Shown here piece by piece: positions 8,164 to 33,054 of a stretch of DNA of 64,000 bases. The stretch comes from an uncultured Acidobacteriota bacterium (GTDB taxonomy: Bacteria; Acidobacteriota; UBA6911): contig CAWJKZ010000013.1 of the NCBI GenBank assembly GCA_963843575.1, positions 384,001-448,000 of the forward strand. The letters are read 5' to 3'. A model generated the notes under the pieces. It did no database searches. It saw only the letters and a list, made by a program, of their open reading frames with translations, and was not told the origin of the DNA. The position numbers and the translations under genes were made by a program. Numbering within the stretch: the stretch's first letter is position 1; every line of letters starts with the position of its first letter.

Positions 8164-8165
8164 GA

Positions 8166-16807: not shown

Positions 16808-17488
16808 ATGTACAAAATCCTGATCGTCGACGACCAGGCGGACCTCGTGAAGGGGTTGGAGATCAACCTCAAGAAGGAGGGCTACGGCGTCGTGAAGGCG
16901 GCGACCGGCGAGGAGGCCCTCAAGCTGGTGACGCAGGAATGTCCTCACCTGATCATCCTCGACATTATGCTCCCGGGAATCAGCGGCTTGGACGTGTGCA
17001 GGGAGCTGCGCAACCGGTCCATCGACATTCCAATTATCATGTTGACCGCGAAAGGGGATGAGATCGACCGCGTGGTCGGCCTGGAACTGGGAGCGGACGA
17101 TTACATGACCAAACCCTTCGGGCTGCGCGAGTTGCTGGCGCGCGTCCGGGTGCGACTGCGCCGCCAGCCCGGGCCGTCGGAACCGCTGGCTCACTACCGC
17201 TTCGGGCAGGTCGAAATAGACTTTGACAAGAACGAGGCGCGGGTCCACAACCGGAAGGTCGACCTGACCCAGAAAGAGTGCGACCTGATACGCTTCATGA
17301 TCCGGAATCGCGGCAACGTCCTTTCGCGCGACGTGCTCCTGAACGAGGTGTGGGGCTACGACGACTACGGGACGACCCGAACCGTCGATACCCACATCCT
17401 GAAGCTGCGCAAGAAATTGGAGGAGGATCCGGCCGATCCCAAGTTCATCCTGTCGATCTACGGAGGGGGGTACAAGTTCGTCGGATGA
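16808..17488 (+). CDS. OmpR/PhoB family response regulator
   Basis: ILIVDD, LDIMLPG, GADDYMTKPF, RTVDTHILKLRKKLE. Confidence 0.95.
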   Translation: MYKILIVDDQADLVKGLEINLKKEGYGVVKAATGEEALKLVTQECPHLIILDIMLPGISGLDVCRELRNRSIDIPIIMLTAKGDEIDRVVGLELGADDYMTKPFGLRELLARVRVRLRRQPGPSEPLAHYRFGQVEIDFDKNEARVHNRKVDLTQKECDLIRFMIRNRGNVLSRDVLLNEVWGYDDYGTTRTVDTHILKLRKKLEEDPADPKFILSIYGGGYKFVG

Positions 17489-18975
17489 GCGAAGCCAGGC
17501 CGAGACCGATCTGGGACCGCATCACGCTGGAGCACCTTTGGCTGGGTGTTCCCCTGTTCGTTCTGGTGGTTAAGGGATTTCTCGTCCCCCTGCCTCTGCT
17601 GGATTTCTGGTGGCACTTGAAGATGGGGGAGATCATCGTCTCCACCCACGCCATTCCCCGCACGGACATTTTTTCATTTACCGCCGCAGGCCAGCCCTAC
17701 ATCGTTCAGAACTGGCTGGCGGAGATCATCTACTACGCGACCTACCGGCTCGGCGGGTTCCCCCTGCTGGTTTTCCTGAACACGGCCCTGCTCGCGCTGG
17801 CGTTGCTCCCCGTGTATCTACTCTGCCTGGAAGTGACTGAGCGAAAGAAGGTTGCCGTCCTGGCGGCGTTTCTGGCCTCGTTTGTCTTCTTCGGCAACAT
17901 GAGGCCGCAGGTTTTTTCGTTCGTCCTGTTTGCTTGGTTTTACTGGGTGCTGGAGGGATACCGGACCGGGCGCCGCGACCGGCTGTGGGTCTTGCCGGTG
18001 CTGATGATCTTCTGGGTGAATTTGCACGGCGCCTTTGTTCTGGGGCTCGGCCTGACGGTGCTCTATCTGGTGGTCGGGATGGTCCCGAAGCTCGTTGGTG
18101 CGGGGGGCGACCGGGATCTGTCGGGGGCGCGGTTGCGCAAGCTCGGTCTTGTGCTGGCCGCGTGCCTGGCGGCGACGCTGGTCAATCCCGAGGGGTACAA
18201 GCTCTACGATTACGTGCGGGTGGTGATGACCGACCCCTCGTCGCAGCAATTTGTCGCCGAGTGGCAGCCCCCCACGGTCAATTCGGCGCAGGGCTTTTTG
18301 ACGTTTTACGGGCTGTTCTTTCTCTCGATCCTGGTATTCGTCTACGCCCGCCAAAGACCTGACCTGATGAAGCTTGCCCTGTTCTTCGTTTTTTCCTTTT
18401 TCGGCCTGATGGCGACCCGCAACACGATCTGGTTCGGCATCGTGATCCCGCCCGTCCTGGCACTTCACATGCCGGGGACGATAGGCTCGAGTGCGCCGGC
18501 GCCTCCCCGGCGGTTCAACGCGTTGGTCGCCGCGGTCGCCGCCGCGGTGCTGGTAATCTTGTCCCCGTGGGTGCGCCCGGCCCTCTATTCAACATCCCTC
18601 CTAGAACCTCAGACGCCGGTCGCGGCCATGGACTACATCGATCGGCACGACCTGCGCGGGCACATCTTCCACCCGCAAGTCTTCGGCGACTACCTCGCTT
18701 GGCGGCTGTACCCGCGTCAGAAGTCGTTCTTTGACGGGAGGGTCCACCTGTTTGGGGAATCCCTGGTCCGGGAGTACCGCAACATCTTCCACGACTCCCA
18801 CTGGGAGGAGCGCCTGCGCCCCTTTGAGATCCGCTACCTGCTGCTGAGCAAGGATCCCGGGCAGGAAGATAGCGTGAGGATGATCGGGAGCGCACGTGCG
18901 TCGAAGAACTGGACCGTGCTGTTCGAAGATAAGGTCGCCATCCTGATGGAGTGCCGCGCCTCGACGCCTTTGTGA
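17485..18975 (+). CDS. Polytopic membrane protein, putative GT-C-fold glycosyltransferase
   Basis: DFWWHLKMG, RPQVFSF, WVNLHGAF, EWQPP, FFDGRVHLFG; more than 10 TM segments; ATGA coupling to the regulator. Confidence 0.6.
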   Translation: MSEARPRPIWDRITLEHLWLGVPLFVLVVKGFLVPLPLLDFWWHLKMGEIIVSTHAIPRTDIFSFTAAGQPYIVQNWLAEIIYYATYRLGGFPLLVFLNTALLALALLPVYLLCLEVTERKKVAVLAAFLASFVFFGNMRPQVFSFVLFAWFYWVLEGYRTGRRDRLWVLPVLMIFWVNLHGAFVLGLGLTVLYLVVGMVPKLVGAGGDRDLSGARLRKLGLVLAACLAATLVNPEGYKLYDYVRVVMTDPSSQQFVAEWQPPTVNSAQGFLTFYGLFFLSILVFVYARQRPDLMKLALFFVFSFFGLMATRNTIWFGIVIPPVLALHMPGTIGSSAPAPPRRFNALVAAVAAAVLVILSPWVRPALYSTSLLEPQTPVAAMDYIDRHDLRGHIFHPQVFGDYLAWRLYPRQKSFFDGRVHLFGESLVREYRNIFHDSHWEERLRPFEIRYLLLSKDPGQEDSVRMIGSARASKNWTVLFEDKVAILMECRASTPL

Positions 18976-19170
18976 GTTTTGGAATCGCTCCTCAGCTACC
19001 TGTAGAGCTCATGCTTTCGGTGTACAGGGACGTCTCAAGTACGGGGATCGCGATGTCCGGCGCGATTGGTCGGCAGAGATTATGGAATCCTGCTTCTCCT
19101 GCCCCCTGATGGCATTTTAGATCACTAGACAATTGCTAGGATGAAGGTTCGTTGCCGTCTCCCGCCAAAA

Positions 19171-21573
19171 CTACTGACTGGGATTGATCAAGCGGGTGAA
19201 CCCGGTGATGTTGACGTCGCGAAACATCGGGGTGCGCGGCGGCAGCAGGGTGGGTTGCAGGAACTCCACGTCGAAGTTGTAGCCTCGCGAGGGTGGCGAG
19301 TAGACATTGGTGCAGCACTTGTAGACTCCGACCGCCTGGCGATTGAAGTAGAGGCTGATAATCGATCCCCGGTAGTTCAGAGTCTGCCCTCCCCAGTTTT
19401 CGAGCAGCCGGACGAAGTTATGCACGCCACCGTCGGTTCCGAAATCCTGAGGGGTTCCGGCGGGTTGTGGAAATGGCCTCCCCGTTCCGGCAATCAGCGC
19501 CGTCCTGTACCAGGTTGTCGTGGCGGTCCGCGCGGTGCCGCCCCCGACGTTGTGCGGGGAAGTGAATGAGTTGCGGTCGTTCCAGTTCCTCGACAGCAGG
19601 GTGACGGCGTCCGCGATCACGGAACACGCGACGTGGTTGCCATCGAAGGTGTTTGGCGCGTTGTAGTTGCCCTGCACGTACACGGGATTTTCAGACACGA
19701 TCGCCAGACCGAGCGGCGTATTGTCGACGGTGCCGAGGTCGATGGCTTGACCGTTGACGAGCTTCAGCGCTCTCCGGAAGAAGACCGGCCGATTCACCCT
19801 TGCGACGTTTGCCGCGACCGCGGTCCAGGGACGGGCTGTGTTGTCCAGCGGCGCCGCTCCCGTCTGGCGGGGAACCTCCCCGTAGGTGTCGAGCCCGCCG
19901 TTGCCGTTGACATCCTCTGCCTGCTCCATGGACCCGTCCGGAGTGCCATTGACGCTGCCGGGATTCACGAAGTCTTCAAAGCCATACTCGCCGGTTTCCG
20001 TATTCATTGCATCGCGATTTGTGCGCCGATCCGAGAAGTAGACCACGTATCCCGTAACGTTGATAGCCGCGCTGCCGCTCGCCCCGATGGCGCCGCGGAA
20101 CCAGCGGGAGAGATTGTTTACATCGAGCTCGACGTAGTGCATGACGCCGCCGAGGTACACCGTAGCCTGGCCGGTCGGGATGTTGTCGCGCAGAGCCCCC
20201 TCACGCGTGTCGTACAGCACGTTGGGCCAGTATTGGGTGCCCACTCCGCTGCTGCAGGCCGCCGGTGCATCTCTCAAACGCTGAACACGAATGATCGAAT
20301 CCGGCGGATTCAGGCAGTTCCCCGTCAGGTCCTGGCCGGCGACGCCGCGCCCGAGGATCTCTGTGGTCACGTCCTGCCAGTTCCCGCCCTGGTCCTGCAT
20401 CTCGATCTTGATGAAGCCATCGATCAGGTTGGTGCCGTTGGGCGTCCGATACCCCTCGCCGGCATTGCCCGAGGAAAGGGCGAAAGGCCTGCCGTCGGGC
20501 GCGACTCCTGCCAACTGGACGGGGGCCGACGCCGTGACCGTAGGTAACGCCGTGATCTCGGGGGCAGTGTCCGACAGGAGAATGCGGAGGCTGGCCATCC
20601 CGAAATATCGCTGCCCGAACACGTCAGGGTTTGCGACATTCTCTCCGATGCCGGGTCGGCGGATCAGGTCAATCGGCGTCGCACCCTGGCTCGCGAGTGG
20701 AAGGTCCATCCGGCGTGCTCCGGTGCGCCCATTCCGGATGTTGCCGTTGTAGGTCCCTATCGACAGATTTGTCCACGTCGGTTCGTTTGAGGCTGTCCCG
20801 ATTGCGCCGACGAGGCTCCCTTCGGAGGCCCTGAGAGCTCTGAAGGCCCCAGGCACGGTGGTTACATTGACGGTGCCGGTGTAGTTCGAGCTCGTTGGCC
20901 AGCCGTTGACGAGATTGGTCCGAATGACCTCACCGACGGCGGTGACCCGATTCGCAAGCGTAAGCGTGCTGCCGGAGCCTTCTGCCAGGTAGAGATTGCC
21001 GTTGGTGTGAACGCGGCCTCCAAAGTTGAAATCCGGACCCGCGTGGAAATTCAGGTCGTTCTGCGAAAAAATCCCGAACTGAAAAACAGGCACCGCGACT
21101 GTCTGCAGGGTCCTGCGCATCCTCACTTCGCTGCCGGTGGCCGTCTGAGCCGTGGCCGTCATGGAATAGGCAGTGATCAAGCCTACCAGCCCCTCGTAGG
21201 GACCAGACGGAACCGTGCGGGTATCGGCTCTGGGCTTGCCGCGGGCATCGAGCGGAAACGTGATCTGATACCCCGAACCGCCGCCGGGCGATACGTACGA
21301 GATGCCCTCGAGGGATGGCGGGCGGGCAGTCAGGGCGTTGATCTGGGCGGTCGTGGGGGCATAATTCGTCTCGAACAGGGTACCCAGATCGGCAGTCAGC
21401 TTTTCCAGACCTGCGAGCGTTGCATAGAATGCGCGCTTTTGATCGCGGTCGAGGCCGATAAGCCCCTGGTCGGAATTGACGGTCAGGATGAAGCCGGTAA
21501 GCAGGGAAGAGAGCAGCACCAGGATCAACAGGGTGGTGATTAGCGCAATCCCACGTTCATTTCCTGTTTTCAT
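19171..21573 (-). CDS. Large PilX-like minor pilin (800 aa)
   Basis: Class III signal ERG|IALITTLLIL lacking Glu5 (PilX/GspK trait), KRAFYATLAGLE; long Gly/Asn/Thr-rich C-terminal region. Confidence 0.8.
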   Translation of the reverse strand: MKTGNERGIALITTLLILVLLSSLLTGFILTVNSDQGLIGLDRDQKRAFYATLAGLEKLTADLGTLFETNYAPTTAQINALTARPPSLEGISYVSPGGGSGYQITFPLDARGKPRADTRTVPSGPYEGLVGLITAYSMTATAQTATGSEVRMRRTLQTVAVPVFQFGIFSQNDLNFHAGPDFNFGGRVHTNGNLYLAEGSGSTLTLANRVTAVGEVIRTNLVNGWPTSSNYTGTVNVTTVPGAFRALRASEGSLVGAIGTASNEPTWTNLSIGTYNGNIRNGRTGARRMDLPLASQGATPIDLIRRPGIGENVANPDVFGQRYFGMASLRILLSDTAPEITALPTVTASAPVQLAGVAPDGRPFALSSGNAGEGYRTPNGTNLIDGFIKIEMQDQGGNWQDVTTEILGRGVAGQDLTGNCLNPPDSIIRVQRLRDAPAACSSGVGTQYWPNVLYDTREGALRDNIPTGQATVYLGGVMHYVELDVNNLSRWFRGAIGASGSAAINVTGYVVYFSDRRTNRDAMNTETGEYGFEDFVNPGSVNGTPDGSMEQAEDVNGNGGLDTYGEVPRQTGAAPLDNTARPWTAVAANVARVNRPVFFRRALKLVNGQAIDLGTVDNTPLGLAIVSENPVYVQGNYNAPNTFDGNHVACSVIADAVTLLSRNWNDRNSFTSPHNVGGGTARTATTTWYRTALIAGTGRPFPQPAGTPQDFGTDGGVHNFVRLLENWGGQTLNYRGSIISLYFNRQAVGVYKCCTNVYSPPSRGYNFDVEFLQPTLLPPRTPMFRDVNITGFTRLINPSQ

Positions 21574-21585
21574 TCCATCGTCCTA

Positions 21586-22593
21586 TCAGCGATAACGGTC
21601 AATAAAGGACAGGCTGCGCAGGCTGACCTGAGTTGTCAGGTTGTGCCGCAGGTATTCGTCGGTGTTCCGGATTTTCAAGCTGGACCGGCCGGCCAGGAAG
21701 ATGCTGGCCTTGCGGATCTGATTGGGGGAATTCGGTGCGACGGGAGTTTTTATGTTCGTCGGGTTCGTAACTCCATCGACCAGGTCATAGGACAGCTGCA
21801 TATCTTCCAGGACCAGCGCGACCGCTGCTCCGGTCCTGTAGTTCACCCGGCGGATCAGGCGAGGCATCGCGGGGTCTGTAGTGGTATCTAGGTAATAGGT
21901 GATCATCCAGACCCGCGTGGCAGTCGTGGGCGGAAACACCCCGGCGCTCTTGAGCTGCGAGATCGACCCCTGGGGTGCCGCGGGCTGATTGAGATGCACA
22001 GGATCGCCGGCGTCGAAATAGATCGTCTGGCCATCCACCCGGGAGACGTATTGCAGTGTGTTGCCGAGCGCATTGCTGAAGGCGATCAGATCGCCGGGGC
22101 TGATGGGATTGCTGATGTTGGTAATCGGCGTGCCGGCGTTCACCCTGGCGCTGGATCCGTCCGCCGCAATTGAATCGAGCGGTGTCTGATTCAGGAGCAG
22201 CAGGTTGTCGGCATAGAGGATGTTGACGATGTCGGTAGCCCGGCCATTGCCTGCGGGGCCCAAACCTGCGCCGGGATTCACCGCAGATACCGTAACCGCG
22301 GGGGCGAACGTGTAACTCCTGCCCGGAGGGCTTGGCCTGTTGACTGGAGCGGCACCCGCGCCGGAGGGGATAGGCAGGCCGCCGGTCGGGATTCCCCCCC
22401 CGGCATTGATGAAGTCTTGGCCGAGAAAATTCATTCCGGCCCGCAGGTTTTGTTCCAGGTCTGCGATGATGCTCGATTTCTCATGCAAACCGAGCGCGTC
22501 GTGAAATGCGCTCATCGTCGCAGCCGTGAGGACGAGCATAATCACCATCGCGATCATAGATTCTGCGAGACTGAATCCCTTTTCACTTCTCAT
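21586..22593 (-). CDS. PilW-like minor pilin
   Basis: KG|FSLAESMIAM, QNLRAGMNFL..D..NAG, EDMQLSY, C-terminal TTQVSLRS. Confidence 0.8.
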   Translation of the reverse strand: MRSEKGFSLAESMIAMVIMLVLTAATMSAFHDALGLHEKSSIIADLEQNLRAGMNFLGQDFINAGGGIPTGGLPIPSGAGAAPVNRPSPPGRSYTFAPAVTVSAVNPGAGLGPAGNGRATDIVNILYADNLLLLNQTPLDSIAADGSSARVNAGTPITNISNPISPGDLIAFSNALGNTLQYVSRVDGQTIYFDAGDPVHLNQPAAPQGSISQLKSAGVFPPTTATRVWMITYYLDTTTDPAMPRLIRRVNYRTGAAVALVLEDMQLSYDLVDGVTNPTNIKTPVAPNSPNQIRKASIFLAGRSSLKIRNTDEYLRHNLTTQVSLRSLSFIDRYR

Positions 22594-22642
22594 CACAGGG
22601 TCTCCGGTGCCGGGAGCCTCCTTCCCGACCTGTCCTGGAACT

Positions 22643-23197
22643 TCAGGCAAACGAGGAGAGATAGGCGACCAACTGGTACTGGCGATTCAAGCTGCCGATC
22701 CTGTAGCGCACGATGACTCGAATCTCGCGCAGATTCGGAGCAAGATCGGTGATCTGGATCTCGCGGGTAAAAACGTCCATGGGACGAACGATGTCATCGC
22801 CGGTGCCCAACACACCGTCCGGTCCTGCCAGAGTCTCGTTTTCAAGCGCGCCGTCGTCTGCCGTGTTTACAAGTCCGTCTGTACCCACGGCGCGCAGCGA
22901 TTTGGGCCCGTCCAGAAACACGCCCCCGGCAGAGGCGTTTCTGATCTGAGCCCAGGTGATGATCCGCGTGTCGCGCGAGGTGAACACGCTCTCGATGGCC
23001 TCCGATGCTTTTTCCTTTGCGACCTGGTGGTAGTGGGAGGTGGACATCAACACCATGCCCTGGGAGAATGCACTGGCCAATGCCAGCAATCCACCCCCAA
23101 GGATGATGATGGAAATCATGGTTTCCAGCAGGGTGAGCCCGGACTGATCCCGGGACGTTGCGCACACGCTGTTGGGCTCGATCGTTATTGGATCCAT
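22643..23197 (-). CDS. PilV-like minor pilin
   Basis: SG|LTLLETMISIIIL..GLLALA, FTREIQI, LREIRVIVRY. Confidence 0.8.
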   Translation of the reverse strand: MDPITIEPNSVCATSRDQSGLTLLETMISIIILGGGLLALASAFSQGMVLMSTSHYHQVAKEKASEAIESVFTSRDTRIITWAQIRNASAGGVFLDGPKSLRAVGTDGLVNTADDGALENETLAGPDGVLGTGDDIVRPMDVFTREIQITDLAPNLREIRVIVRYRIGSLNRQYQLVAYLSSFA

Positions 23198-23742
23198 AGA
23201 CTCCCCGTCCACCGGTAACCTCGAACGCGTCCGGTCGCTCCTAGGATGGTGGCTACCCGGGCCGTAATAGGCCGGTCCAGTCCCAAGAACACCGACCCGT
23301 TCACAGGATTCCCCTGCGCGTCGACCAGTGTCCCGTCGCTCAAAAACATGATTGTTCCGGCAGTCCCGAAAGCCACTGCCGTCCCGTTGCCGAAGGAGTC
23401 GGGAGAGTCGGGCACACCGTCCATTAACCGGAATTGGACGTTGCCCCCGAGCGTGACGGTGCTCAATACGGTTGTCCCGGCGGGTACATCGTTCCGGACG
23501 AGTTGAATCTGATTGTTATTCGGGAATCTCAACTGGATGCTCCGCCTCTGGACAATCGCCAACTCTCTGCCTCTGCGCAGTTGCGCCACCGTCTGAGTCA
23601 GAGCCGTGTTGGAGTTCATCCCTCGTGTTATTCCGGTGATGTCCGGCAGTGCGATCGCGGCAATCACGGAAAACACGACAAGTACAATCAGGGCTTCAAC
23701 TATTGAAAACCCGTCCTGATTGCCCTCTCGACACGGAAGCAT
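23185..23742 (-). CDS. FimT/FimU/GspH-like minor pilin
   Basis: DG|FSIVEALIVLVV..IAAIALP, QLRRGRELAI, IMFLSDGT, ATGRVR; RBS AGGAG. Confidence 0.85.
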   Translation of the reverse strand: MLPCREGNQDGFSIVEALIVLVVFSVIAAIALPDITGITRGMNSNTALTQTVAQLRRGRELAIVQRRSIQLRFPNNNQIQLVRNDVPAGTTVLSTVTLGGNVQFRLMDGVPDSPDSFGNGTAVAFGTAGTIMFLSDGTLVDAQGNPVNGSVFLGLDRPITARVATILGATGRVRGYRWTGSLWIQ

Positions 23743-23803
23743 GCTTTGTCTCCTGCGTTTGGTAACCCTGCCCCGGGGTGTGTCAGGTCAATACCAGAGC
23801 TAC

Positions 23804-23840
23804 GACACCTGTAAGACGGCGAGCGGGTCTTTATGCTTAC
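23804..23840 (-). promoter_or_regulatory. Putative ECF sigma promoter of the type IVa minor-pilin operon
   Basis: Minus strand GTAAG-N17-CGTCTTA; TCGCCGTCTTACAGGTGTC (23804-23822) is identical to 26429-26447. Confidence 0.7.
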
Positions 23841-24032
23841 GCCATCTGCGTGATCTGTGATGCAGGACACATTAAGCGCGGGGATTGCGGGTATCTCTCG
23901 TGGCCGAATGGCAGGAGCTCGCCAGAGCGCGCCCGGAACTGCCGTGGTGTGGTGTCGTGCCTCCGCTTAAGACTATTGTTAATATTGTCTTGGTCGGCTC
24001 TCCCGATCGCGTTACCATCAGCGCCATCCCTT

Positions 24033-24635
24033 ATGGATAGCGACAGCGCTTCGAATGCCCGCGCTCTCCCGAGCGCTGGGAAAAAGAAGGGCAATCCACC
24101 CCCGCCCGCAGACGGCGGAGACTGCGTCCTGCGCGAAGCTGCCCAACGCGATCTGCTGCAGCTCTACGACGAGAACTTCCCCGGGTTGTTCCGATACGCT
24201 AACGCACTCACCAGGGACAGGGAGCAATCCAAGGATGCCGTACAGGAGGCTTTCCTGCGCTATTATGCTTCGCGCGTGGCCGGCGCTGACATCCTGAACG
24301 GGAAGGCGTGGCTCTACACGGTGCTGCGCAATTACGTGATGGACAGATTCCGGGAATCCGGTACATTCAAGGAGGTCGGGATAGATGCGCTGCGGGACCT
24401 CCCTGATGAAAGCCAGAGCGTGCAGACAGGCTTGAGAAGCGCGAGATCTCCCGGCGCGCCACTGCAATCGCTCAGCCCCAGGGAACTGGACTGCCTCAGG
24501 CTCCGCGCCGAGGGATTAAGATATCGCGAGATCGGCGATGTTTTGGGCATCACGTCGGGGACGGTCAGTGCCCTCCTGGTGCGCGCGGCGAAGAAGCTGC
24601 GCAGCGCTGTAGATGCGGAAAAGAGGAGCAAGTGA
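24033..24635 (+). CDS. ECF-type RNA polymerase sigma-70 factor
   Basis: Region 2 KDAVQEAFLR/KAWLYTVLRNYVMD, region 4 LSPRELDCLRLRAEGLRYREIGDVLGITSGTV; start uncertain. Confidence 0.88.
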   Translation: MDSDSASNARALPSAGKKKGNPPPPADGGDCVLREAAQRDLLQLYDENFPGLFRYANALTRDREQSKDAVQEAFLRYYASRVAGADILNGKAWLYTVLRNYVMDRFRESGTFKEVGIDALRDLPDESQSVQTGLRSARSPGAPLQSLSPRELDCLRLRAEGLRYREIGDVLGITSGTVSALLVRAAKKLRSAVDAEKRSK

Positions 24636-25186
24636 TGTCGAACCTCATTCCACCGAACCTGCGTTGGCTGGGGTTGCACCCCGGGGCCGACGAGCTCCTG
24701 GCGTTCCTCGACGGCGAGCTCGACGAACCGGCCGCGGGACAGGTCCGCCAGCACCTTGCGAAATGCGCTCGATGTCGGCAGAAGTCGTCCAACACGGAAG
24801 CGGTACTGAGCGAAATACGCGAGATCGTTTCGGCGCCCCTGCCGGGGGACCTTCCTGTCCGCGAGGCGTTTGCCGACCTGCAGAGCGCCATTCAAACGTG
24901 GCACCTGGAGCGCAGCGCACGGGGCGCGGCCGGCGTGCCTCTGGCTCAGACAGATCTCGGCAAGCAGTTGTCTGCCGTCCTCGAGGTGTATCTCGGGTCG
25001 CGCGCCACCCGGGCACTGCTTGAAAACGCCGGGCGCGACGAGTATGCGGACGAGAGGCTGATGACCGCGATGGCGCCGATGCTGCGCACCTTCCTCGGAA
25101 GAGAAAGTGCGGACGCGCTAGAAATGAAGATGCGAGCGATCCTCAGCCGCGAACGTAAAATGCGAGCATCGAAGCCGATCGGATAA
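24632..25186 (+). CDS. Zinc-finger (zf-HC2) anti-sigma factor without a TM helix
   Basis: HPGADELLAFLDGEL....VRQHLAKCARC (Hx3Cx2C); overlaps the sigma stop. Confidence 0.8.
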   Translation: MMSNLIPPNLRWLGLHPGADELLAFLDGELDEPAAGQVRQHLAKCARCRQKSSNTEAVLSEIREIVSAPLPGDLPVREAFADLQSAIQTWHLERSARGAAGVPLAQTDLGKQLSAVLEVYLGSRATRALLENAGRDEYADERLMTAMAPMLRTFLGRESADALEMKMRAILSRERKMRASKPIG

Positions 25187-25190
25187 GCAC

Positions 25191-26090
25191 ATGCGAACGC
25201 GGCGAACACCTCACGGTCGACTGTCGAGCATCCTGCTCTGGACAACTGCCGTTCACATGACGATAGGGCTGGGCGTCCTCCTCGCCTGGATTCGATTCCA
25301 GGATGACAGGTTGCTGCATTATTACTTCAATTACCTGGGGGCACTGTTCTTCGTTGGTGTCGGGACGACGGACCTGGCCTTGTGCTGGAAGGCTTTTCGG
25401 CGATTCTCGACCGGCGAACCACTGCGCACGGCGTGGCTGCTCATCACGCTTGCTTCGGCCCACCGCCTCGTCGGATTACTTTTTTCCGAGGTGCTCAGCG
25501 TCCAGTCCCTCCTGAACCCGGGCCTCCTGTTCGCGAGTTCCTGGGACCCGGACGTCGCCGTCACGTTCCGCCAGTTCGGCTTGTTCGCCAGCGGCCCGGT
25601 GCAAATGGTCCTCCTGGCATGCGGACTCCTGATCGTGATCGGCATCTACCGGAAACTCGGGATGCTTCCCCGGTTTAAGGTGGTGGATTATGTTCTGCTG
25701 GCGGGCGTTTTTGCATTTACCGCCCGCGAAATCGGAATGGCGGTCTGGATGGTGCGGACGGGCGTGCCCGAGAGCACGTTCAAGGTCCTGAACTGGGCAA
25801 GCGACCCGCTCCTGTGCGTACTGCTGTTCGAAGCGGTACTCGTGCGCCGGGCCGTCCTCAACATGGGTTGGGGACTGATCGCGGAGTGCTGGGGCGCCCT
25901 GATGATCGCGATCGTCATCACCTCCATCGGCGATATGGGGATCTGGGCCACCGCTAACGGCTACCTCCCATGGCCGTTCAATGCGATTGCGTGGTTTGTC
26001 TGGTACCCCGCCAGCACTGCCTTCGCGCTCGCCCCCGCATACCAACTCGAAGCCATCCAACTCGCCCGTAACTCCCGCCCGACACCCTGA
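25191..26090 (+). CDS. Polytopic (7-8 TM) membrane protein, putative sensor
   Basis: Alternating hydrophobic segments, no soluble output domain; starts 4 bp after the anti-sigma. Confidence 0.7.
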   Translation: MRTRRTPHGRLSSILLWTTAVHMTIGLGVLLAWIRFQDDRLLHYYFNYLGALFFVGVGTTDLALCWKAFRRFSTGEPLRTAWLLITLASAHRLVGLLFSEVLSVQSLLNPGLLFASSWDPDVAVTFRQFGLFASGPVQMVLLACGLLIVIGIYRKLGMLPRFKVVDYVLLAGVFAFTAREIGMAVWMVRTGVPESTFKVLNWASDPLLCVLLFEAVLVRRAVLNMGWGLIAECWGALMIAIVITSIGDMGIWATANGYLPWPFNAIAWFVWYPASTAFALAPAYQLEAIQLARNSRPTP

Positions 26091-26409
26091 GTGGGACCTT
26101 TTTGGCTCTACCCTGAAAAGCCCGGTGCGAATCTGACGACCCATCGATCAACCTGGGCTCGGCCTCTGTCGCGGCAAGCATTCGGAATGAAGGCCAGCCC
26201 AAACCGTTCGACATGAAAGCCTGCCTGGCCCTGGAGCAAGTGGTTTAGCACTCAGGCTACCGCATGGATCCATCCCGACAGTCGAAGGTCGATCGATTGC
26301 CTGCACCTGTCCTCGGCAAAATAGTCTGTTCAGAAGCTGTGCCGAATCGGCATCACCGGGGCTCTTTGAGCGTCGGGCGGGGGCCCGAAGCCTGATCTGG
26401 ATTTTCCGT

Positions 26410-26447
26410 GTAAGCAAAACTCCTCTCGTCGCCGTCTTACAGGTGTC
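26410..26447 (+). promoter_or_regulatory. Putative ECF sigma promoter of the Tad minor-pilin operon
   Basis: GTAAG-N18-CGTCTTA; 19 bp identical to the element upstream of the fimT-like gene. Confidence 0.7.
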
Positions 26448-26546
26448 AGTTCCCCAAAACAGATGAACGTCCCTTCGAGACGGGGATGCTGTCCAGTCTG
26501 AGTGCGAGTTTTCGGTGCAGGGGTAATCCTGACCGCCGAGGGCCAT

Positions 26547-27020
26547 ATGAACAAATCACGGTGGAAGTCCTCGAAAGGACAGGCGCTGGTCGAAACTGCT
26601 TTCGTTCTGATCACCCTGCTGCTCTTCACATTTTCGGTGCTGGACTTCTCGCTTATCTTTTATGTCCATCAATCACTCGAGAACGGTATCAACCAGGCCA
26701 CGCGGTACGCCACGACGGGGCAAAGAAAGCAGATCATTGACCCGATAACAGGACTTCCTGTCACGCTGGACCGGGCGGCGTCCATAAAGAAGGCCATGCA
26801 GGAGGCTACCGTCATCGACCTGAGCACGGCCCAGTATACATTCACAAACATCAGCAACCCTGCAGGCGACCCGACGGGCGGCCCCGGAGACATCATCCGG
26901 GTAAAAGTCACGTATGATTGGCCGATTTGCACCCCGTTGATCAGGCCGCTTTTCCCCAGCGGCAAGGTGACTCTGACAGTCGCTTCCGCCGTAAAGAACG
27001 AACCGTTTCCCACATCGTAG
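26547..27020 (+). CDS. tadE: TadE-like pseudopilin
   Basis: KG|QALVETAFV, NQATRYATTG, GGPGDIIRVKVTY, KNEPF. Confidence 0.85.
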   Translation: MNKSRWKSSKGQALVETAFVLITLLLFTFSVLDFSLIFYVHQSLENGINQATRYATTGQRKQIIDPITGLPVTLDRAASIKKAMQEATVIDLSTAQYTFTNISNPAGDPTGGPGDIIRVKVTYDWPICTPLIRPLFPSGKVTLTVASAVKNEPFPTS

Positions 27021-27030
27021 AGCGGCCTTC

Positions 27031-27681
27031 ATGTTCGACAGCTCCAGAAACACATTGATGGGCACGACTAATGTCTTCATGAAAACACGAATGTCGTGGA
27101 ACTGTGCTGAAACCCTGCGGGCGTCGGCCGGTCAGACACTCGTTGAGTTTGCCCTGATGCTGCCGCTTTTCCTGCTGATAATCCTCGGTGTAATCGAGAT
27201 GTCGTTCGCCCTCTACAACCAGAACCTGCTCATCAAGCTGTCACGGGAGGGGGCGAACCTGATCTCCCGGGACACCTCGCTGCAGGACGCCGCGACGGCA
27301 ATGTCGTCCATTGCCACTTCACCGGTTGATTTCAGCAGTGCTAGATCGAGGCTGATTTTTTCGGTGATCCGCCAAGGGACTCGGGGAAGCAATGCAGGGA
27401 GACCTATCCTTTACCAACGCCTGGCAATCGGCAGCTTGAGCGCTGGAAGTGCGCTTGCCACTCAAGGGGCCGGCACCTTCGGAGGGCCCCCCAATTACGT
27501 CGCGATTAACCCCGACGACGACGCCAATCTACGGATTACCAATCTGCCAGCCAACGTGGTCCTCCAGAGCAACGGGCTGATCTTTCTGGCCGAAGTCTAT
27601 AACAGCTATACGCCCATCAGCCCTTTCCAGAATATCGCATTCCGGATGCCTGACAGGTTATACGCGAGTGCGTATTTCTAA
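27031..27681 (+). CDS. TadE/TadF-like pseudopilin
   Basis: AG|QTLVEFALMLP, SREGANLISR; true start may be 27079. Confidence 0.85.
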   Translation: MFDSSRNTLMGTTNVFMKTRMSWNCAETLRASAGQTLVEFALMLPLFLLIILGVIEMSFALYNQNLLIKLSREGANLISRDTSLQDAATAMSSIATSPVDFSSARSRLIFSVIRQGTRGSNAGRPILYQRLAIGSLSAGSALATQGAGTFGGPPNYVAINPDDDANLRITNLPANVVLQSNGLIFLAEVYNSYTPISPFQNIAFRMPDRLYASAYF

Positions 27682-27747
27682 ACCGGGCGCCGATAAGAGG
27701 GTCTAGACGATTTTCTAAAGCTTACGAGGACCAAAGGGCGGCGCAAG

Positions 27748-29169
27748 ATGAGGGTGAAAAAACGTCCGGGAACATGCATGGGGGATGAGCACGGAATCGC
27801 GATTCTGTATGTGGCCGCATCGCTTGTCCTAATGTTGATCTTTGCCGGACTCGCCATCGACCTCGGTTGCGGCTACGTGCTAAAAGGCCAGCTCTCAAAG
27901 GCCGTGGATGGTGCGGCACTGGCCGCGGCACGCACGCTGGGCAGTGGGGATCCGCGAACCGAGGCGGCGCGCATCTTCCGCGCCAATATCCCGGCCCACT
28001 ATATGGGCACCACATCGATGACCGACCCCGACACAGACCTGGGTTTTTTCCAGTCCCGCTATGATGCGGCCAGTGGGGCCAACATCATCACGGTCAGCGC
28101 CAGTGCGGTGCTGCCCACCAGCTTTATGCGCCTCGCAAACCACAACGAACTGAACGTTGTGGCTTCGGGCGAAGCCACCAGGCGGCTGGTTGACCTCGCG
28201 CTGGTTCTCGACACATCCAGTTCGCTGGGAGCAGGATGGCCTGACGTCCGCGATGCGGCACGCACTTTCGTGAATTCATTCTCACCGTCGGACCGGCTTT
28301 CGCTAATCCTCTACAGCAATGGCGCACGCGTGATCGTCCCCATGCCTCCAGACCGCAGCAGCGACCCCGCATCGCTCGCCGCCCAGATTCCGCAAAACAA
28401 CCCGGGCGGGAGCACTGCGATGGATGAAGGATTGTACCGCGGCTGGGACGAGATGCGCACCGTGCCGCGCAACCAGCAGTCAGGATTGCGCGTCATTGTG
28501 CTATTCACGGACGGCTGCAGCAACAGCGTTCCAGGCCTCTACCGCGTCAACGGGATTCCGCTGGGACGAGCGACAGGCCTCAGGACCTATGATTTCCCCG
28601 ATCGCCCGAACGATAACGGCCAGACATGGGACGACCCAACAATTGAAGGGCTCTTCGACACCCAGAGCGGAGCACAGAACCCCAGCTACCAGCTGAGGAC
28701 GACGCGGTGGAATTCGACCGAAACCATAGCCGCTGTCCCGTCCCTGCCCGCCACGAGTTATCACCCGAACCATCGCAGCATGGGCATCCCGGAAGCGTTT
28801 CCCCTGTACGATGCCGCGCTGCCTGGTCAGCGCCCCCCGCGGGCCCCCGCCTCCCGTGCTGATGTGTGGAACATCAACAACGCGGCCCGGAATCTGCTGG
28901 AGATCATCGCCGCGCAGATCCGGGCGGACGACGACGGGAGTTACCCGATCCGGATCTACACAATCGGGATGGGGGTACTGGTGAAAATGCAGCTCGGGAC
29001 AAAGCCGGAACTCTCGGAGGATATGCTCAAGCGCATCTCCAACGACAGGACCTCGCCCGACTACGACAGCGCCCATCCCGACGGTAAGTACTATTATGCG
29101 CAGACTTCGGCGGACGTAGACGCGGCCTTTCAAGCCCTGCGCAGCCAGATCATTCGCTTGAGCAAGTGA
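27748..29169 (+). CDS. tadG: TadG-like pilin with von Willebrand A domain
   Basis: LAIDLG..LSKAVDGAALAAA, MIDAS DTSSS, VIVLFTDG, IYTIGMG. Confidence 0.85.
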   Translation: MRVKKRPGTCMGDEHGIAILYVAASLVLMLIFAGLAIDLGCGYVLKGQLSKAVDGAALAAARTLGSGDPRTEAARIFRANIPAHYMGTTSMTDPDTDLGFFQSRYDAASGANIITVSASAVLPTSFMRLANHNELNVVASGEATRRLVDLALVLDTSSSLGAGWPDVRDAARTFVNSFSPSDRLSLILYSNGARVIVPMPPDRSSDPASLAAQIPQNNPGGSTAMDEGLYRGWDEMRTVPRNQQSGLRVIVLFTDGCSNSVPGLYRVNGIPLGRATGLRTYDFPDRPNDNGQTWDDPTIEGLFDTQSGAQNPSYQLRTTRWNSTETIAAVPSLPATSYHPNHRSMGIPEAFPLYDAALPGQRPPRAPASRADVWNINNAARNLLEIIAAQIRADDDGSYPIRIYTIGMGVLVKMQLGTKPELSEDMLKRISNDRTSPDYDSAHPDGKYYYAQTSADVDAAFQALRSQIIRLSK

Positions 29170-29823
29170 AAGCGCGGTATCGGACGCGGCCGGCTCACAC
29201 GCGATCCGCGCCGATCTACTGCTGCCGGTGCAGGCGCCGCATGTCCTCGAGCTCGTCCATGTGGGGAGAATCGAGCAGGGCCTTCCAATGGAAGCGGCGG
29301 TCAAACGGCTTTAGTGCGACGTCCGCGTCGAACCGGCGCTTGTCGATGGGGCGCACGTCGTCGTAACCCCCGACGGCGCCCCGGTCAAGGAGTAGAGGCA
29401 AGCCGCCACTGCGGCCCCTTCCGGCGGGCCGGTACCGTAGGGGCGGACTGGCGGCCCGCTTCTTGATCGCGGAACCGGTCTGCAACCGCGGGCTCCCCCG
29501 GCACCACTGAATCAGCCACTCACAGCCACCGCCTTTTCGAGCAGACCCCAATTGTGCCCACGGCGCTGAAAGTCAGCCACCCACATTGCCAGTTGTGGGG
29601 TGCCCCGAATTGTAGTCGGCCCTGACGAGTGACCGACCGGCGGCCCGTTACGTCCAATTGGCGCGCTCACTCCCACATCGCCGTATACCGCAAACTGGGA
29701 GTTTCCGACTCACTGGCGCAACTGCTGCGGATTCATGTAGCCAGAGGCCGCACCAGCCGACTATAATCGCTGCAAATCCACTCTCTTCTGATCGCAGTGC
29801 GCCGAAGTGCCAAGGGATTCTCC

Positions 29824-31858
29824 ATGATCGGCAAAACCGTATCGCACTACCGGATCACAGAAAAGCTCGGCTCAGGCGGCATGGGGGAAGTCTACCTGGC
29901 GCACGACACGCAACTCGGACGCAGCGTCGCACTGAAAATACTCCCTCCCGATATGATCGAGGATAAGGAGAGAGTGCAGCGCTTCTTCATGGAAGCTAAA
30001 GCCGCGTCGGCACTCAACCACCCTAATGTCTGCACCATCCATGAGGTTGGCAAGACCGGCGATGGGCTCCTTTTCATCGCAATGGAGAACATCTCCGGCA
30101 AGACCCTCGATTCCGCGATAACCGAACGCGCTCTTACGATACCCGAGATCCTGGACATCGGAGTGCAGCTCGCCGACGCGCTCACCGAGGCGCACGCCAA
30201 AGGCATCACACACCGTGACATAAAGCCCGCCAACATCATGATCACGCCTCGTGGCCAGGTCAAAGTGCTCGATTTCGGACTCGCGAAGCGGCAGGCAGCC
30301 GAAAACGCCGGCCGGAGGAAGCCAGCACCCGGATGGAGACCACTGTTGGCGTGATCCTCGGCACCGTCCAATACATGAGCCCCGAGCAGGCTCTGGGCAA
30401 GAGTATCGACCATCGGACGGACATCTTCAGTCTGGGCGTTGTGCTTTACCAGATGACCACACGCAACCGTCCCTTCTCGGCGCCAGCGCGACAGAAACCA
30501 TCGACCAGATCCTTCATGGACAACCCGCGAAGATAGCGTGTTGCAACAAGGACGTTCCCCAGGAGCTGGAACGGATCATCCGCAAGTGTCTCGAGAAAGA
30601 CCGGGAGCAACGCTACCCATTGGCGAGCGAGCTTCTGACGGAGCTGAAAAACCTGAAGCGTGAATTCGACCCCGGCAACGTAAGCGCTGTGCGCGTCCTG
30701 CCAAAGCCTGGAAGAAGGTTCCGTCGCATGGCGTACTTTACGATCGCCCTGGCGGCAGCCGTCATCGCATGCTGGTCGCTCTATTACTTCCTGGCGCGCA
30801 ACAAGCCGACGGAACCGGGTAATGCCCAGGCCCCGGTACTGCAGCGGGCGCGCCTGAGTACCGGCGGACCTGCATCGGGCAACCAGGAGGCTAACGAATA
30901 CTTTGAAAAGGGCATGATGTTCCTCAGGAAGCAGTTCGACATTCCGCGAAGCCGGCAGATGCTTGAAAGAGCGCTTCAGCTGGATCCGCACTTCGCGGAA
31001 GCCAGGGCTAACCATGCCTTCACCCAGGTGCTGACGATCGACAGCGGGTACTCCAACGACGCCAGCCTGCTTTACCAGGCCGAGGATGAAATCCGGCAGG
31101 CCCTCCAGGATGATCCCCAGTCGGTTGCGGCGCATTCAACCCGTGCGGCCATCCTCCTCTACCAGGGGCGCAAGGAATTGGTCCCAGGCGAGGCTGAGCT
31201 GGCTCTTAAAGCCTACCCGGATGACCTGGATGCCAGGATCTGGCTGATGAATTACCACGAACTCAACGGGGAATACACTGCCGCCCAGAGCCTGGCGATG
31301 CAGGTACTCCAGAGCGATCCCCTGTTTTATCCGGCACGCATGTGTTTGGGGGATTACTTTCGTCAGCAAGGGGACTTTGCGGCTGCCATTCGGGAATTTG
31401 AGAAGTCCTCGAGCAGGATTCACAGAACATTCACGCGCTCGTCAAGCTGACGCGCACGTATGCAGCGGCAGGAGACCTGCGCAACGCTCGCCTTACCCTG
31501 GAGCGCCAGCGCCCGATTGACCGGACCAACTACCAGATTCGCCTCGCATCAGCCCTTCTGCTGGCTCTCGAGCGGCAGCGCAGCCCAGCATTGAAGGAGA
31601 TGGATGAAGAGGTCTTAAGATATGCCGGAATGGTGCCGGATTTGACCTCGCTCGTGGCCGAGTTCTCTACGCGGTTCTGGGAGACGTTCCGAAAGCGTTG
31701 GAATGGCTCGACCGGGCGTTGCGGAGCGGCGATGAGCGCGCTGAGTGGTTGAGCCGCGACCCTCTCTTTGCGAACGTCCGCAGTCAACCTCGCTTCAAGC
31801 AGATTCTGGACTCTATCGCCCTCAGGCGGCAGGTGCGAGCCCAGGCTCGCCACAATAA
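29824..31858 (+). pseudogene. Ser/Thr protein kinase with TM and TPR region, multiply frameshifted
   Basis: [23 protein letters not shown] in one frame; [10 protein letters not shown] in a second; TPR part in further frames. Confidence 0.85.
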
Positions 31859-32338
31859 GTGAACGGCGTCTCCCGGCGTCGGATACTTATAAACCTGCGA
31901 CTTCACAATATCCCGGGAGAGGGAGAGACGGCTAAGGGCTCGCGCAAGAATAAATTCACATTTTGGCGCGAGCGCCGGGCGGGCAGATGCGAGGCGCCGC
32001 GACGCAGGCGATGTCGGTGTCATCGTCGAGGAGCGGCAACGCAGCAGATGCCCGCCCGCCGCCGCGCCGCCGGCGGGCTGACGGCTCCGTCAATAGCAAT
32101 CTCCTAGACTCGAAGACCCGAGGTACACACCATCATGAAAACCGACAGGCGAAAAATGCTGGCAGGTACCGTAAATGTGCTGCAGCACATTTGGTCTACC
32201 TGCACCACGTCGAGAGCCACGCCGATGCGGCAATCAGGCGGGCGCAGATGGACGAGGCGGCAGATATCCAAGCCAGTTCTGGGCGGGAGAAAAGCGGCCA
32301 TTCGTCGGAGGGGGCATTAAATGCGAAATCCTGTAACT

Positions 32339-32363
32339 TGGTGCCGAGGACGGGAATCGAACC
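32339..32363 (-). other. tRNA 3'-end fragment (att-like scar)
   Basis: Minus strand GGTTCGATTCCCGTCCTCGGCACCA, 20/25 identical to the 3' end of tRNA-Leu at 50196, same orientation. Confidence 0.7.
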
Positions 32364-32514
32364 TTCGGCGCTCGCCAGAAGTTACCCGGCCCTGCTTTTG
32401 AGAAGTGACCCACCTGAGATTCATTCCACTGCATTGATCGGTCTCCCGCCCTCGGAGAATTGAATACAGCATCGGTTTCAGCGTGGGAGGGCAGTCGCGT
32501 CCGATACAGGACGA

Positions 32515-32964
32515 ATGTCGAGACCGAAGAAGCCCCACCTGAAACGGTGCACAGTCTGCCGTCACTGGTACCGTCCGTCGGCAAGAGCCACTTTCCAGAA
32601 GACCTGTTCCGAGAGATGCCGCCTGCGGCGTCGACGCCGTCTTGCGCGTCTCCGCAGAGAACACAACCTTCAGGACTACCGGGTGGATGAGAGGGAGCGC
32701 CAACGCATGTCCCGTCAGCGGCGGAAGAAGGCGGCAGAATCCACCGCGATGTCACGCGCCGGGCATCTACCGCAACTCACTGACATTCATAGGCTTGTGC
32801 AGGAAAGTGTGGACAGAGTTCTGAAACGGTCACGCCCTACCTTGATTCGGCAACTGACTGCGTCTCTTGCGGATAATGCGGTGAACCGTGGACAAGCCAT
32901 GCCTCCGGAAGTCATCGGTCACGCGCCGGCTTTCAGCTGCAACTATCTGCCGGAACTGAGTTAA
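32515..32964 (+). CDS. Basic Cys-rich hypothetical protein upstream of ParB-IS21
   Basis: CTVC...CSERC followed by an Arg-rich helix. Confidence 0.55.
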   Translation: MSRPKKPHLKRCTVCRHWYRPSARATFQKTCSERCRLRRRRRLARLRREHNLQDYRVDERERQRMSRQRRKKAAESTAMSRAGHLPQLTDIHRLVQESVDRVLKRSRPTLIRQLTASLADNAVNRGQAMPPEVIGHAPAFSCNYLPELS

Positions 32965-33054
32965 GCCTGAGAATCGTGGACAACGTGTCACGCTCCTGCA
33001 TCGACTCCGAAGACCTTCCGGTGAATGCTCCCTGCATGCTGCGAGGCAGCCACC

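Follow-up and report, generated by a model that had tools for sequence, protein, structure and literature searches.

What does a sigma factor control when its gene lies between operons for two different classes of type IV filament? This question is raised by positions 19171-29169 of a 64,000-nucleotide stretch of DNA (hereafter, the window; positions 384001-448000 of contig C13) from an uncultured soil acidobacterium, whose assembly comprises 6,684,759 bp in 27 contigs, with 64% G+C, and is 88% complete. According to Pfam and NCBIfam, the region holds ten genes: a leftward operon of four type-IV-like pseudopilin genes (FimT, PilV, PilW, and PilX types), a rightward trio that encodes an extracytoplasmic function (ECF) sigma factor, a zf-HC2 anti-sigma factor, and a polytopic membrane protein, and a rightward operon of three Tad-type genes (TadE, TadE, and TadG). 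This gene content agrees with a first-pass annotation of the DNA, which had also suggested that the two operons share a promoter and that the sigma factor switches pilus tips. We find that the locus is probably a single ECF module with two local target operons, both of which would be co-regulated by the adjacent sigma factor.

The two operons are preceded by the same element. A 19-mer (TCGCCGTCTTACAGGTGTC) occurs at 23804-23822 on the minus strand and at 26429-26447 on the plus strand, as had been claimed, and these are the only matches in the window at up to two mismatches (100 shuffles gave 0 matches). Upstream of the 19-mer, the two copies read GTAAGCATAA and GTAAGCAAAA, and local alignment of the copies gives a single shared block of 37-39 nt and nothing outside it. 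The element has the form GTAAGCA-N15/16-CGTCTTACAGGTGTC and is confined to these two sites in the 6.68-Mb assembly. We will term them P1 (23804-23840, minus strand, GTAAGCATAAAGACCCGCTCGCCGTCTTACAGGTGTC) and P2 (26410-26447, plus strand, GTAAGCAAAACTCCTCTCGTCGCCGTCTTACAGGTGTC). As delimited by pattern matching, P1 has a −35-like GTAAGC, a gap of 16 nt, and a −10-like CGTCTTA, and P2 is the same element with a 17-nt spacer. ECF promoters have this two-block form, with 16/17-nt spacing and CGTC at −10. The half-sites are common across the assembly (CGTCTTA occurs 99 times and GTAAGCA occurs 156 times). The combined motif is not scattered over the genome: GTAAGC-N15-18-CGTCTTA and CGCCGTCTTACAGG each have two sites in the entire assembly, and these are P1 and P2. 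Each copy is on the coding strand of the operon that it faces. The 19-mer ends 61 nt before the ATG of the FimT-like gene at 23742. On the Tad side, the distance is 99 nt if the first TadE gene starts at the ATG at 26547, or 54 nt if it starts at an upstream GTG at 26502. The values of 61 and 99 nt are close to the distances of about 60 and 100 bp that had been given. P1 is also divergent from the sigma gene, 193 nt upstream of its ATG.

Relatives of the locus were found with the membrane protein, which is a specific handle for this purpose. The 16 genome loci, which come from metagenome-assembled genomes of Acidobacteriota/Terriglobia, and the best 80 of 152 metagenome relatives make up 96 loci (77 clusters at 90% nucleotide identity). 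Of the 49 non-redundant clusters whose sequence extends 1300 bp or more ahead of the membrane gene, 48 have a sigma orthologue upstream of it in the same orientation, and the anti-sigma factor was matched by tblastn in 38 of those 48. The orthologues that accompany the membrane gene share 33-50% identity with the window's sigma factor; the paralogues in its own genome are at most 31% identical to it. The trio thus defined appears to be a conserved module of Acidobacteriota. The sole evaluable cluster without a sigma gene is L066 (1397-5123), where the membrane gene directly follows a PilX-like gene at a distance of 263 bp; this could be a sign that the membrane protein is linked directly to the pilin genes.

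The membrane protein was found in 3 of 41 sampled relative genomes (counting its own genome) and in 5 of 51 genomes within the family. A genome from the same genus (G001, 81% complete) has no match to the membrane protein. Synteny with G001 ends at window position 18944, immediately to the left of the module, and G001 then runs into DNA that in the window's genome (G000) is found on contig C11. So far as gene order indicates, the module appears to sit at a rearrangement point. A ParB_N-like open reading frame (ORF) and a Mu-type transposase (rve and Mu-transpos_C_2) lie at 33025-35360, 4 kb to the right of the module.

The intergenic regions of the 16 genome loci contain a recurrent bipartite motif, tGTAAAGAAa-N12/13-TCGTCtta. 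A position matrix was built from 16 sites in these loci and applied to the 80 independent metagenome loci (590,506 bp, both strands). Of 36 sites with scores of at least 20, 34 are divergent from the sigma gene and within 450 bp of its start. The other two are a site between the sigma gene and the membrane gene and a convergent site just downstream, and the rest of the sequence has none. The divergent site (tGTAAAGAA-N13-TCGTCtt) is present in 25 of the 36 clusters that have at least 250 bp of upstream flank. Because the high-scoring sites in metagenome loci cluster at the trio, the motif seems to be a fixed part of the module, at the place that P1 occupies in the window. Four loci (L008, L010, L011, and L016) have another copy of the motif ahead of the anti-sigma gene, which suggests negative feedback. 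The window and the relatives have in common the GTAA core, the spacing, and CGTCTTA. (CGTCTTA is also found in L006 and L018, and L078 and L083 carry CCGTCTTA.) In the window's own genome (13.4 million positions), the matrix gives three scores of at least 20, all inside ORFs. We also looked for additional regulon members with this matrix, which is not a valid test for the −35 variant of the window (see below), and found no further targets: the top four sites (scores of 23.1, 22.1, 20.8, and 19.8) are all inside ORFs, one of them at the start of a ribosomal-protein gene.

How might such a module work? We propose that it consists of the ECF sigma factor, a cytoplasmic zinc-binding anti-sigma factor that would hold the sigma factor, and an eight-helix membrane protein. 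The C-terminal domain of the anti-sigma factor would dock on the cytoplasmic face of the membrane protein, so that the pair would be a two-piece membrane sensor and anti-sigma factor, and a signal from the envelope or the surface would free the sigma factor. The free sigma factor would then read its own type of promoter (GTAAGCA-N15/16-CGTCTTA), of which there are exactly two copies in the genome. By comparison with the relatives, P1 would drive the FimT-PilV-PilW-PilX-like operon and P2 would drive the TadE-TadE-TadG(VWA) operon, with joint induction. The resulting priming or tip subunits would be used by machines that are encoded elsewhere: PilB/PilT/PilC and a type II secretion system (T2SS)-like cluster on contig C24, and the Tad locus on C11. 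Across the Acidobacteriota, the module would be a switch for surface structures with swappable cargo, and in this genome and in L060, both cargo slots would be filled with pseudopilin sets.

The sigma factor (24033-24635, plus strand, 200 amino acids) is an ECF (group 4) factor: it matches Sigma70_r2 (34.9 bits) and Sigma70_r4 (42.9 bits) in Pfam, region 3 is absent, and it scores 66 bits against TIGR02937 (sigma70-ECF), above the cut-off of 42.9. It does not reach any subfamily or equivalog model in NCBIfam (the best is NF058625, with 70.4 bits versus a cut-off of 130). Its nearest solved chains are SigL and SigH of Mycobacterium tuberculosis. Although the long ORF opens with a GTG at 23778, translation most likely starts at the ATG at 24033. 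At its start (24632), the anti-sigma gene (24632-25186, plus strand, 184 amino acids) overlaps the sigma stop at 24635, and its product matches zf-HC2 with 32.6 bits (cut-off 22.2). In an alignment of 33 sequences, H41, C45, and C48 of the HxxxCxxC motif are invariant, an HP near the N-terminus is conserved, and the C-terminal part has the motifs YLGxRA and FLGxxA; no hydrophobic segment is seen in this alignment, hence no membrane helix, and the protein is expected to be soluble. The N-terminal profile matches the anti-sigma domains of ChrR (E = 7e-8), DdvA, and RsiW. We predict that the protein is a zinc-binding anti-sigma factor (ZAS, zf-HC2) with a putative zinc motif.

The third protein of the trio (25191-26090, plus strand, 299 amino acids) has no family in Pfam or NCBIfam. 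Its 104 homologue clusters are all annotated as "hypothetical" and all lack Pfam domains; its closest relatives are P0003 and P0004 (62% and 59% identical). The AlphaFold 2 model is confident (predicted local distance difference test, or pLDDT, of 90.9) and has one N-terminal helix followed by a bundle of seven helices. Foldseek against the PDB gave nothing at E ≤ 0.001. The best structures by VIA-align were class A G-protein-coupled receptors (Z of 11.1, root-mean-square deviation of 4.3, 211 aligned residues), which is under the caution line of about 13 for helical bundles. In an Atlas search with the homologue P0045 as the query, clusters of HisKA_7TM, MASE3, and MASE4 scored 0.78-0.80, which is the chance level. 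The resemblance to seven-transmembrane (7TM) proteins appears to be one of topology and not of family.

Models of the complex between the anti-sigma factor and the membrane protein gave ipSAE scores of 0.76, 0.76, and 0.71 in three runs, versus 0.00 for the best of three controls. (Among benchmark pairs, 116 of 157 solved complexes and 2 of 215 mismatched pairs attain this ipSAE mark, counts that are only a rough guide as custom alignments were used.) The runs share at least 93% of their contacts, and partner pLDDT is at least 80. On the anti-sigma side, the modelled interface comprises residues 115-125 and 149-169, which correspond to the YLGxRA and FLGxxA motifs. On the side of the membrane protein, it comprises residues 3-7, 71-78, 152-158, 224-231, and 288-297, and it holds the invariant residues F72, G226, and G228 and the near-invariant residues R79, L229, I230, and A288. 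These models suggest that the two proteins may form a split membrane anti-sigma factor. We found no fused anti-sigma/membrane protein, as a search for longer proteins was empty, which is weak evidence. Apparent fusion forms in L019, L021, and L076 were discarded: their in-frame extensions are out-of-frame artefacts of high GC, and a gene with HxxxCxxC is present in the other frame.

To describe the cargo of the module in relatives, we identified the genes in about 5 kb around the trio with Pfam and with tblastn, for which the window's proteins were the queries (or with tblastn alone for contigs of less than about 3 kb). Tad-type genes lie beside the trio in 17 clusters (16 by Pfam or strong tblastn hits, and L088 by a weak tblastn hit alone), and type-IV-like pseudopilin genes lie near it in 9 clusters, besides L092, which has just a DUF7305 fragment. 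Homologous trios do adjoin pilin genes, then, as the first-pass annotation would lead one to expect. An outer-membrane protein with CarboxypepD_reg and OMP_b-brl_4 domains is present in 12 clusters; it is accompanied by pseudopilins in 5 of these and by a beta-helix protein in several. In 10 clusters, the neighbors are a response regulator, a Cys-rich protein of 97 amino acids, and a secreted protein of 462 amino acids. When only the 48 clusters with 2 kb or more of flanking sequence to one side are counted, pseudopilins are found in 23, and 11 have none of these four classes of cargo.

The motif precedes Tad sets in L007, L010, L011, L016 (partial), L031, L060, L078, L083, L096, L098, and L106, and type-IV-like sets in L008, L018, L015, L006, and L060. 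It precedes the TonB-like outer-membrane protein (CarboxypepD_reg and OMP_b-brl_4) in L033, L039, L048, L056, L057/L059, L067, and L076. The proposed co-occurrence of trio, motif, and pilins therefore holds in part: pseudopilins are the commonest cargo, but the TonB-like proteins and the response-regulator operon are found in the same place. No other cargo accompanies the module as often as pseudopilin sets do, yet it is not pilin-specific.

The arrangement in the window is not unique, as L060 likewise combines the two kinds of pilin set, and each of them follows a motif. There, the divergent motif precedes an extra anti-sigma paralogue and then TadE-TadE-TadG, and the second motif precedes a response regulator, GspH, two N_methyl genes, and PilX_N, which are convergent after the membrane gene. 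Because this geometry differs from that of the window, double loading with cargo seems to have arisen more than once. In both L007 (7980-8534, minus strand) and L060 (5268-5864, minus strand), the Tad operon behind the motif opens with a second zf-HC2 anti-sigma paralogue, in addition to that of the trio. As for the response-regulator operon, in L012, L013, L014, L043, L044, L047, L054, and L087 (~5900-8750, minus strand), the motif is ahead of the set with the receiver-domain protein. In this set, the 97-amino-acid Cys-rich protein (MANPKYKVSDK...) is highly conserved, and the secreted protein (462-498 amino acids) has no family. In these loci, the trio is flanked by polyphosphate kinase and a PHO4 phosphate transporter, and a link to phosphate is possible.

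Where are the machines that would use these subunits? No component of a pilin machine is found among the region's ten scanned ORFs, as the first-pass annotation had stated, and in genome-wide searches, T2SSE ATPases, secretins, and prepilin peptidase are all on other contigs. A full Tad locus on C11 (29-43 kb, within 29000-44000) encodes two Flp, RcpC, a secretin, a CpaE-like protein, a CpaF-type T2SSE ATPase, two T2SSF proteins (TadB and TadC), and a TPR protein. A second TadG-TadE-TadE set lies at C11:2963-5150, about 27 kb from these Tad core genes, and in its TadG only the Tad N-terminal domain was found. (A DruA-like protein, as in Druantia defence, is encoded at C11:1638-2777, or L107, directly beside this second set.) PilB, PilT, PilC, a sigma-54 activator, and a PilA-like gene are at C24:274-286 kb, and a T2SS-like cluster with GspG is at C24:184-198 kb. 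The expectation that core machineries would be found elsewhere in the genome is thus confirmed for both classes. The single Peptidase_A24 (prepilin peptidase) match in the assembly is on C14, just ahead of a GspH-like gene; no prepilin peptidase specific to the Tad system was found in the 88%-complete assembly.

In the same assembly, we did not find a second set of the FimT-PilV-PilW-PilX type. The nine N_methyl matches are accounted for by this operon (2), the T2SS-like cluster (4), the PilA-like gene near PilB/PilT/PilC (1), and C14 (2). As the leftward set may be the sole priming set, the sigma factor would gate pilus assembly and not switch tips. For the Tad pilus, the window's set is possibly an extra kit, and for the type-IV-like set, the sigma factor may gate assembly.

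Some of the machine genes appear to be split. The Pfam matches of the T2SS-like ATPase, the platform protein, and two secretins (C24:185487-186648, C24:196210-196657, and C14:704387-704852) each fall into two adjoining pieces in different frames. The genes may be pseudogenes, or the assembly may contain indel errors, in which case other apparent frameshifts in this genome need care. At 29797-31450 in the window, an ORF of 185 amino acids with the N-terminal two-thirds of a Ser/Thr kinase domain overlaps a TPR ORF of 399 amino acids in another frame; this looks like one kinase-TPR gene that was split by a frameshift or by an assembly indel.

We now return to the two target operons. The leftward operon is led by a FimT/GspH-like minor pseudopilin (23185-23742, G/FSIVE, where the slash marks the cleavage site), followed by a PilV-like (22643-23212, G/LTLLE) and a PilW-like (21586-22650, G/FSLAE) minor pseudopilin and finally by a large PilX/GspK-like pseudopilin of 800 amino acids (19171-21573, MKTGNERG/IALITTLL), all on the minus strand. 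The N_methyl model exceeds its cut-off of 21.2 in two of the three small subunits (26.7 bits for FimT/GspH-like and 25.6 for PilW-like) and is marginally below it for the PilV-like protein (20.3 bits). Other family matches are under their cut-offs: PilX_N for the 800-amino-acid protein (E = 0.0027, 18.1 bits, cut-off 25.5), TIGR02523 for PilV (26.1 bits, cut-off 52.2), and ComGD and GspH for the FimT/GspH-like protein (weak; GspH at 19.5 bits, cut-off 80). In NCBIfam, the 800-amino-acid protein also matches HpsA (E = 1.7e-15, 55.8 bits, far under the cut-off of 400), and the PilW-like protein weakly matches HpsC (17 bits, cut-off 200). Because the curated models are not reached and no PilY1-like ORF is found within 19171-23742, we call this set only "type-IV-like." The PilW-like protein probably starts at a Met about 19 codons inside its ORF. 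The AlphaFold 2 model of the 800-amino-acid protein (from 6 sequences) has a mean pLDDT of 35, with some confidence only in an N-terminal helix and sheet (residues 6-160), and its profile has 0 matches to PDB sequences. Orthologues of this protein (60-67% identical) lie 3′ of PilW-like genes (48-65% identical) in L008, L009, L018, and L032; PilV-like orthologues are 55-68% identical.

The Tad-type operon begins 456 bp after the trio (26090 to 26547) and encodes two TadE-type pseudopilins (26547-27020, KG/QALVETA, 39 bits; 27031-27681, AG/QTLVEFA, 52.2 bits; cut-off 22.9) and a large TadG-type pseudopilin with a VWA domain (27748-29169, HG/IAILY), all on the plus strand. The TadG-type protein matches Tad (30.9 bits, cut-off 22.3), VWA (49.3 bits), and VWA_2 (46.2 bits), each above its cut-off, and has DTSSS as an intact DxSxS metal-site motif. 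The first TadE ORF is open from the GTG at 26502, and the ATG at 26547 has GAGG five bases upstream. Orthologues are 48-55% identical for the first TadE (L007, L010, L011, L016, and L060), 45-51% for the second, and 57% (L010) and 56% (L011) for TadG. A scan of 18900-29600 for terminators and promoters gave no excess over shuffles, and no terminator-like site was seen in it on the plus strand between 26090 and 26410. The top matrix score in the window (16.7) is at 26990-27019 on the plus strand, where a consensus-type −35 (CGTAAAGAAC) lies in the closing codons of the first TadE gene, 12 nt ahead of the second, yet with a poor −10 (ATCGTA); this could be a chance match or an internal promoter of low strength.

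Class III signal motifs are evident from the translations of both operons: Gly-1 and Glu+5 are present in the three small leftward subunits and in both TadE proteins, and the two large subunits (the 800-amino-acid protein and TadG) keep Gly-1 and lack Glu+5. Small subunits with Glu5 and one large subunit without it make up the priming or tip complexes of type IV filaments (GspK in T2SS, and PilX/TadG-type proteins). As each operon encodes only prepilin-type small subunits and one such large subunit, each has the composition of a priming/tip complex.

Several observations weigh against regulation of both operons by the adjacent sigma factor. The relatives' matrix gives a score of 15.5 for P2 and less than 10 for P1; P2 ranks second of the 8 scores of at least 10 in the 64-kb window and 40th in the genome, where 71 positions score at least 14. 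The matrix misses these sites because this genome has a variant −35 (GTAAGCA, versus GTAAAGA or GTAAATA in the relatives), and it is an invalid test for that variant. As P1 and P2 match the family consensus poorly, the link to the sigma factor in this genome rests on position, on the GTAA and CGTC cores, and on the duplication. The claim that one sigma factor co-induces two tip kits is thus favored by the related GTAA...CGTC motif, which in relatives is divergent from the sigma gene and ahead of pseudopilin operons, but not by the scores of the window's own sites. Also, the strong divergent motif is absent from 11 of the 36 independent clusters, and the target motif was not found on the plus strand upstream of the sigma ATG at 24033. 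The 19-bp identity extends 8 nt beyond CGTCTTA, and the two promoters of L008, L010, and L018 have no such identity past the −10. Sigma contacts alone may not account for it, and a second factor or a recent duplication of the promoter are possible reasons; we infer that the promoter was duplicated recently, when the second cargo was recruited. The docking of the anti-sigma factor on the membrane protein is a prediction from custom alignments. Finally, the leftward pseudopilins are under the curated PilV, GspH, and HpsA cut-offs, and the set is assigned to no machine.

One alternative is that the 37-nt element is not an ECF promoter but a fragment that was duplicated, or a site for a different regulator such as the OmpR-type response regulator at 16808-17488. 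This would explain why the identity continues past the −10 and why both sites score poorly with the family matrix, and a pair of histidine kinase and response regulator does lie 2 kb to the left. We consider it very improbable, because the element has the two blocks, the spacing, and the CGTC of ECF promoters, because it is located as the relatives' motif is, on the coding strand of each operon, and because G001 has the kinase/regulator pair in synteny but none of the module. If the sigma factor does drive both operons, they might serve a secretion pseudopilus (T2SS-like, or of the HpsA-D type for polysaccharide export) or one joint surface structure. HpsA is the only family-level similarity of the 800-amino-acid protein and is joined by the weak HpsC match, the genome has a T2SS-like cluster with GspG, and in relatives, the promoter precedes TonB-like outer-membrane proteins and beta-helix proteins, and glycosyltransferases often adjoin the trio. 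However, both Hps scores are far under their cut-offs, the Tad proteins exceed theirs and a complete Tad locus is present, and neither operon contains polysaccharide export genes, so this alternative seems unlikely.

The first-pass annotation had instead favored strict tip switching, in which the operons are alternative kits that displace the resident minor-pilin sets (type IVa and Tad) upon release of the sigma factor and so alter what the pili bind. We view this as rather unlikely. The second TadG-TadE-TadE set on C11, whose TadG has only the Tad N-terminal domain versus a VWA domain with intact DxSxS in the window's TadG, would be a possible counterpart, and Myxococcus xanthus is reported to have several differentially expressed minor-pilin/PilY1 sets (PMC9109919 and PMC8833165). 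But no second set of the leftward type was found in the 88%-complete assembly, so that the sigma factor may gate assembly instead of switching tips, and what we see fits the addition of kits as well as their replacement; the replacement of kits is unsupported. Co-regulation of both operons by one ECF module can also be extended to a broader proposal, which we put forward tentatively, as conceivable rather than probable: that this is a new ECF architecture in which a 7TM receptor-like sensor holds a soluble zinc anti-sigma factor via two motifs, and in which the sigma factor controls type IV filaments via their priming/tip subunits only, coupling type IVa/T2SS-like and Tad filaments to one external signal ("tip-first" control).

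What is new here is a conserved acidobacterial ECF module with an unusual, predicted split sensor and with swappable surface cargo, in this case two pseudopilin sets. The control of type IV filaments has mostly been studied at the level of the major pilin or the motor. In this locus, a dedicated promoter type would cover only the priming/tip subunits, and of two filament classes together; if true, this would give the cell cheap control over the building of pili and over the target of adhesion. The module would be a portable, probably orthogonal pair of sigma factor and promoter with a very small regulon, and it offers a testable case of a soluble anti-sigma factor that would be held by a distinct polytopic protein in the membrane. 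Although Acidobacteriota are abundant soil bacteria, they are difficult to culture, and little is known of how they regulate their surfaces.

Pairs of ECF sigma factors and ZAS anti-sigma factors are textbook systems. In RpoE-ChrR of Rhodobacter sphaeroides and in SigH-RshA and SigL-RslA of M. tuberculosis, as in this module, a sigma factor with regions 2 and 4 is co-transcribed with a soluble HxxxCxxC anti-sigma factor. In contrast to ChrR-type proteins, the C-terminal domain of the window's anti-sigma factor is not a cupin and belongs to no family. The module also differs from all three pairs in that an always-linked eight-helix membrane protein is predicted to bind the anti-sigma factor, in that the window's sigma gene lacks a motif of its own, and in that the apparent targets are pseudopilin operons and not oxidative-stress genes. 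Another familiar arrangement is that of FecI/FecR-type ECF systems, which adjoin TonB-dependent outer-membrane proteins, much as the trio adjoins the CarboxypepD_reg and OMP_b-brl_4 protein in 12 related clusters. The trio, however, has no FecR-like anti-sigma factor, and in the window its cargo is pseudopilins and not an outer-membrane protein. FecR-type ECF groups are listed in the ECF re-classification (PMC7826278). The words pilus, pilin, and Flp are absent from the main text of that paper, which tabulates the contexts of groups in its supplements. Judging by titles and abstracts, we found no paper in which an ECF module is coupled to operons for minor pilins or Tad pseudopilins.

Non-housekeeping sigma factors are nevertheless found in control of pseudopilins that serve a type IV machine encoded elsewhere, as we propose for the window. 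In Staphylococcus aureus, the competence genes under SigH reportedly include pseudopilins. SigH is linked to the competence genes of S. aureus (PMC3486894), and SigJ switches on the pseudopilin genes hpsA-D in Nostoc punctiforme (PMC6495340). Those factors run large regulons for development or competence, are not ECF trios beside their targets, and do not involve Tad genes. On the side of the cargo, free-standing tadEEG clusters have been described in Chloroflexota (PMC7332563). The window's set has the same order (TadE, TadE, TadG) and is likewise away from the flp-rcpC-cpaF-tadBC locus, but it has a dedicated ECF-type promoter; the word "sigma" is absent from PMC7332563.

The leftward operon resembles type IVa minor-pilin sets in having three Glu5 pseudopilins and a larger subunit without Glu5, apart from the machine. 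M. xanthus is reported to have several differentially expressed minor-pilin/PilY1 sets that form type IVa priming/tip complexes (PMC7541494, PMC8833165, and PMC9109919), and in both systems the choice of the set to be produced would fall to a regulator. In contrast to those sets, the leftward operon lacks a PilY1 gene, appears to use an ECF module in place of the HsfBA phosphorelay, and has a Tad set on the same promoter.

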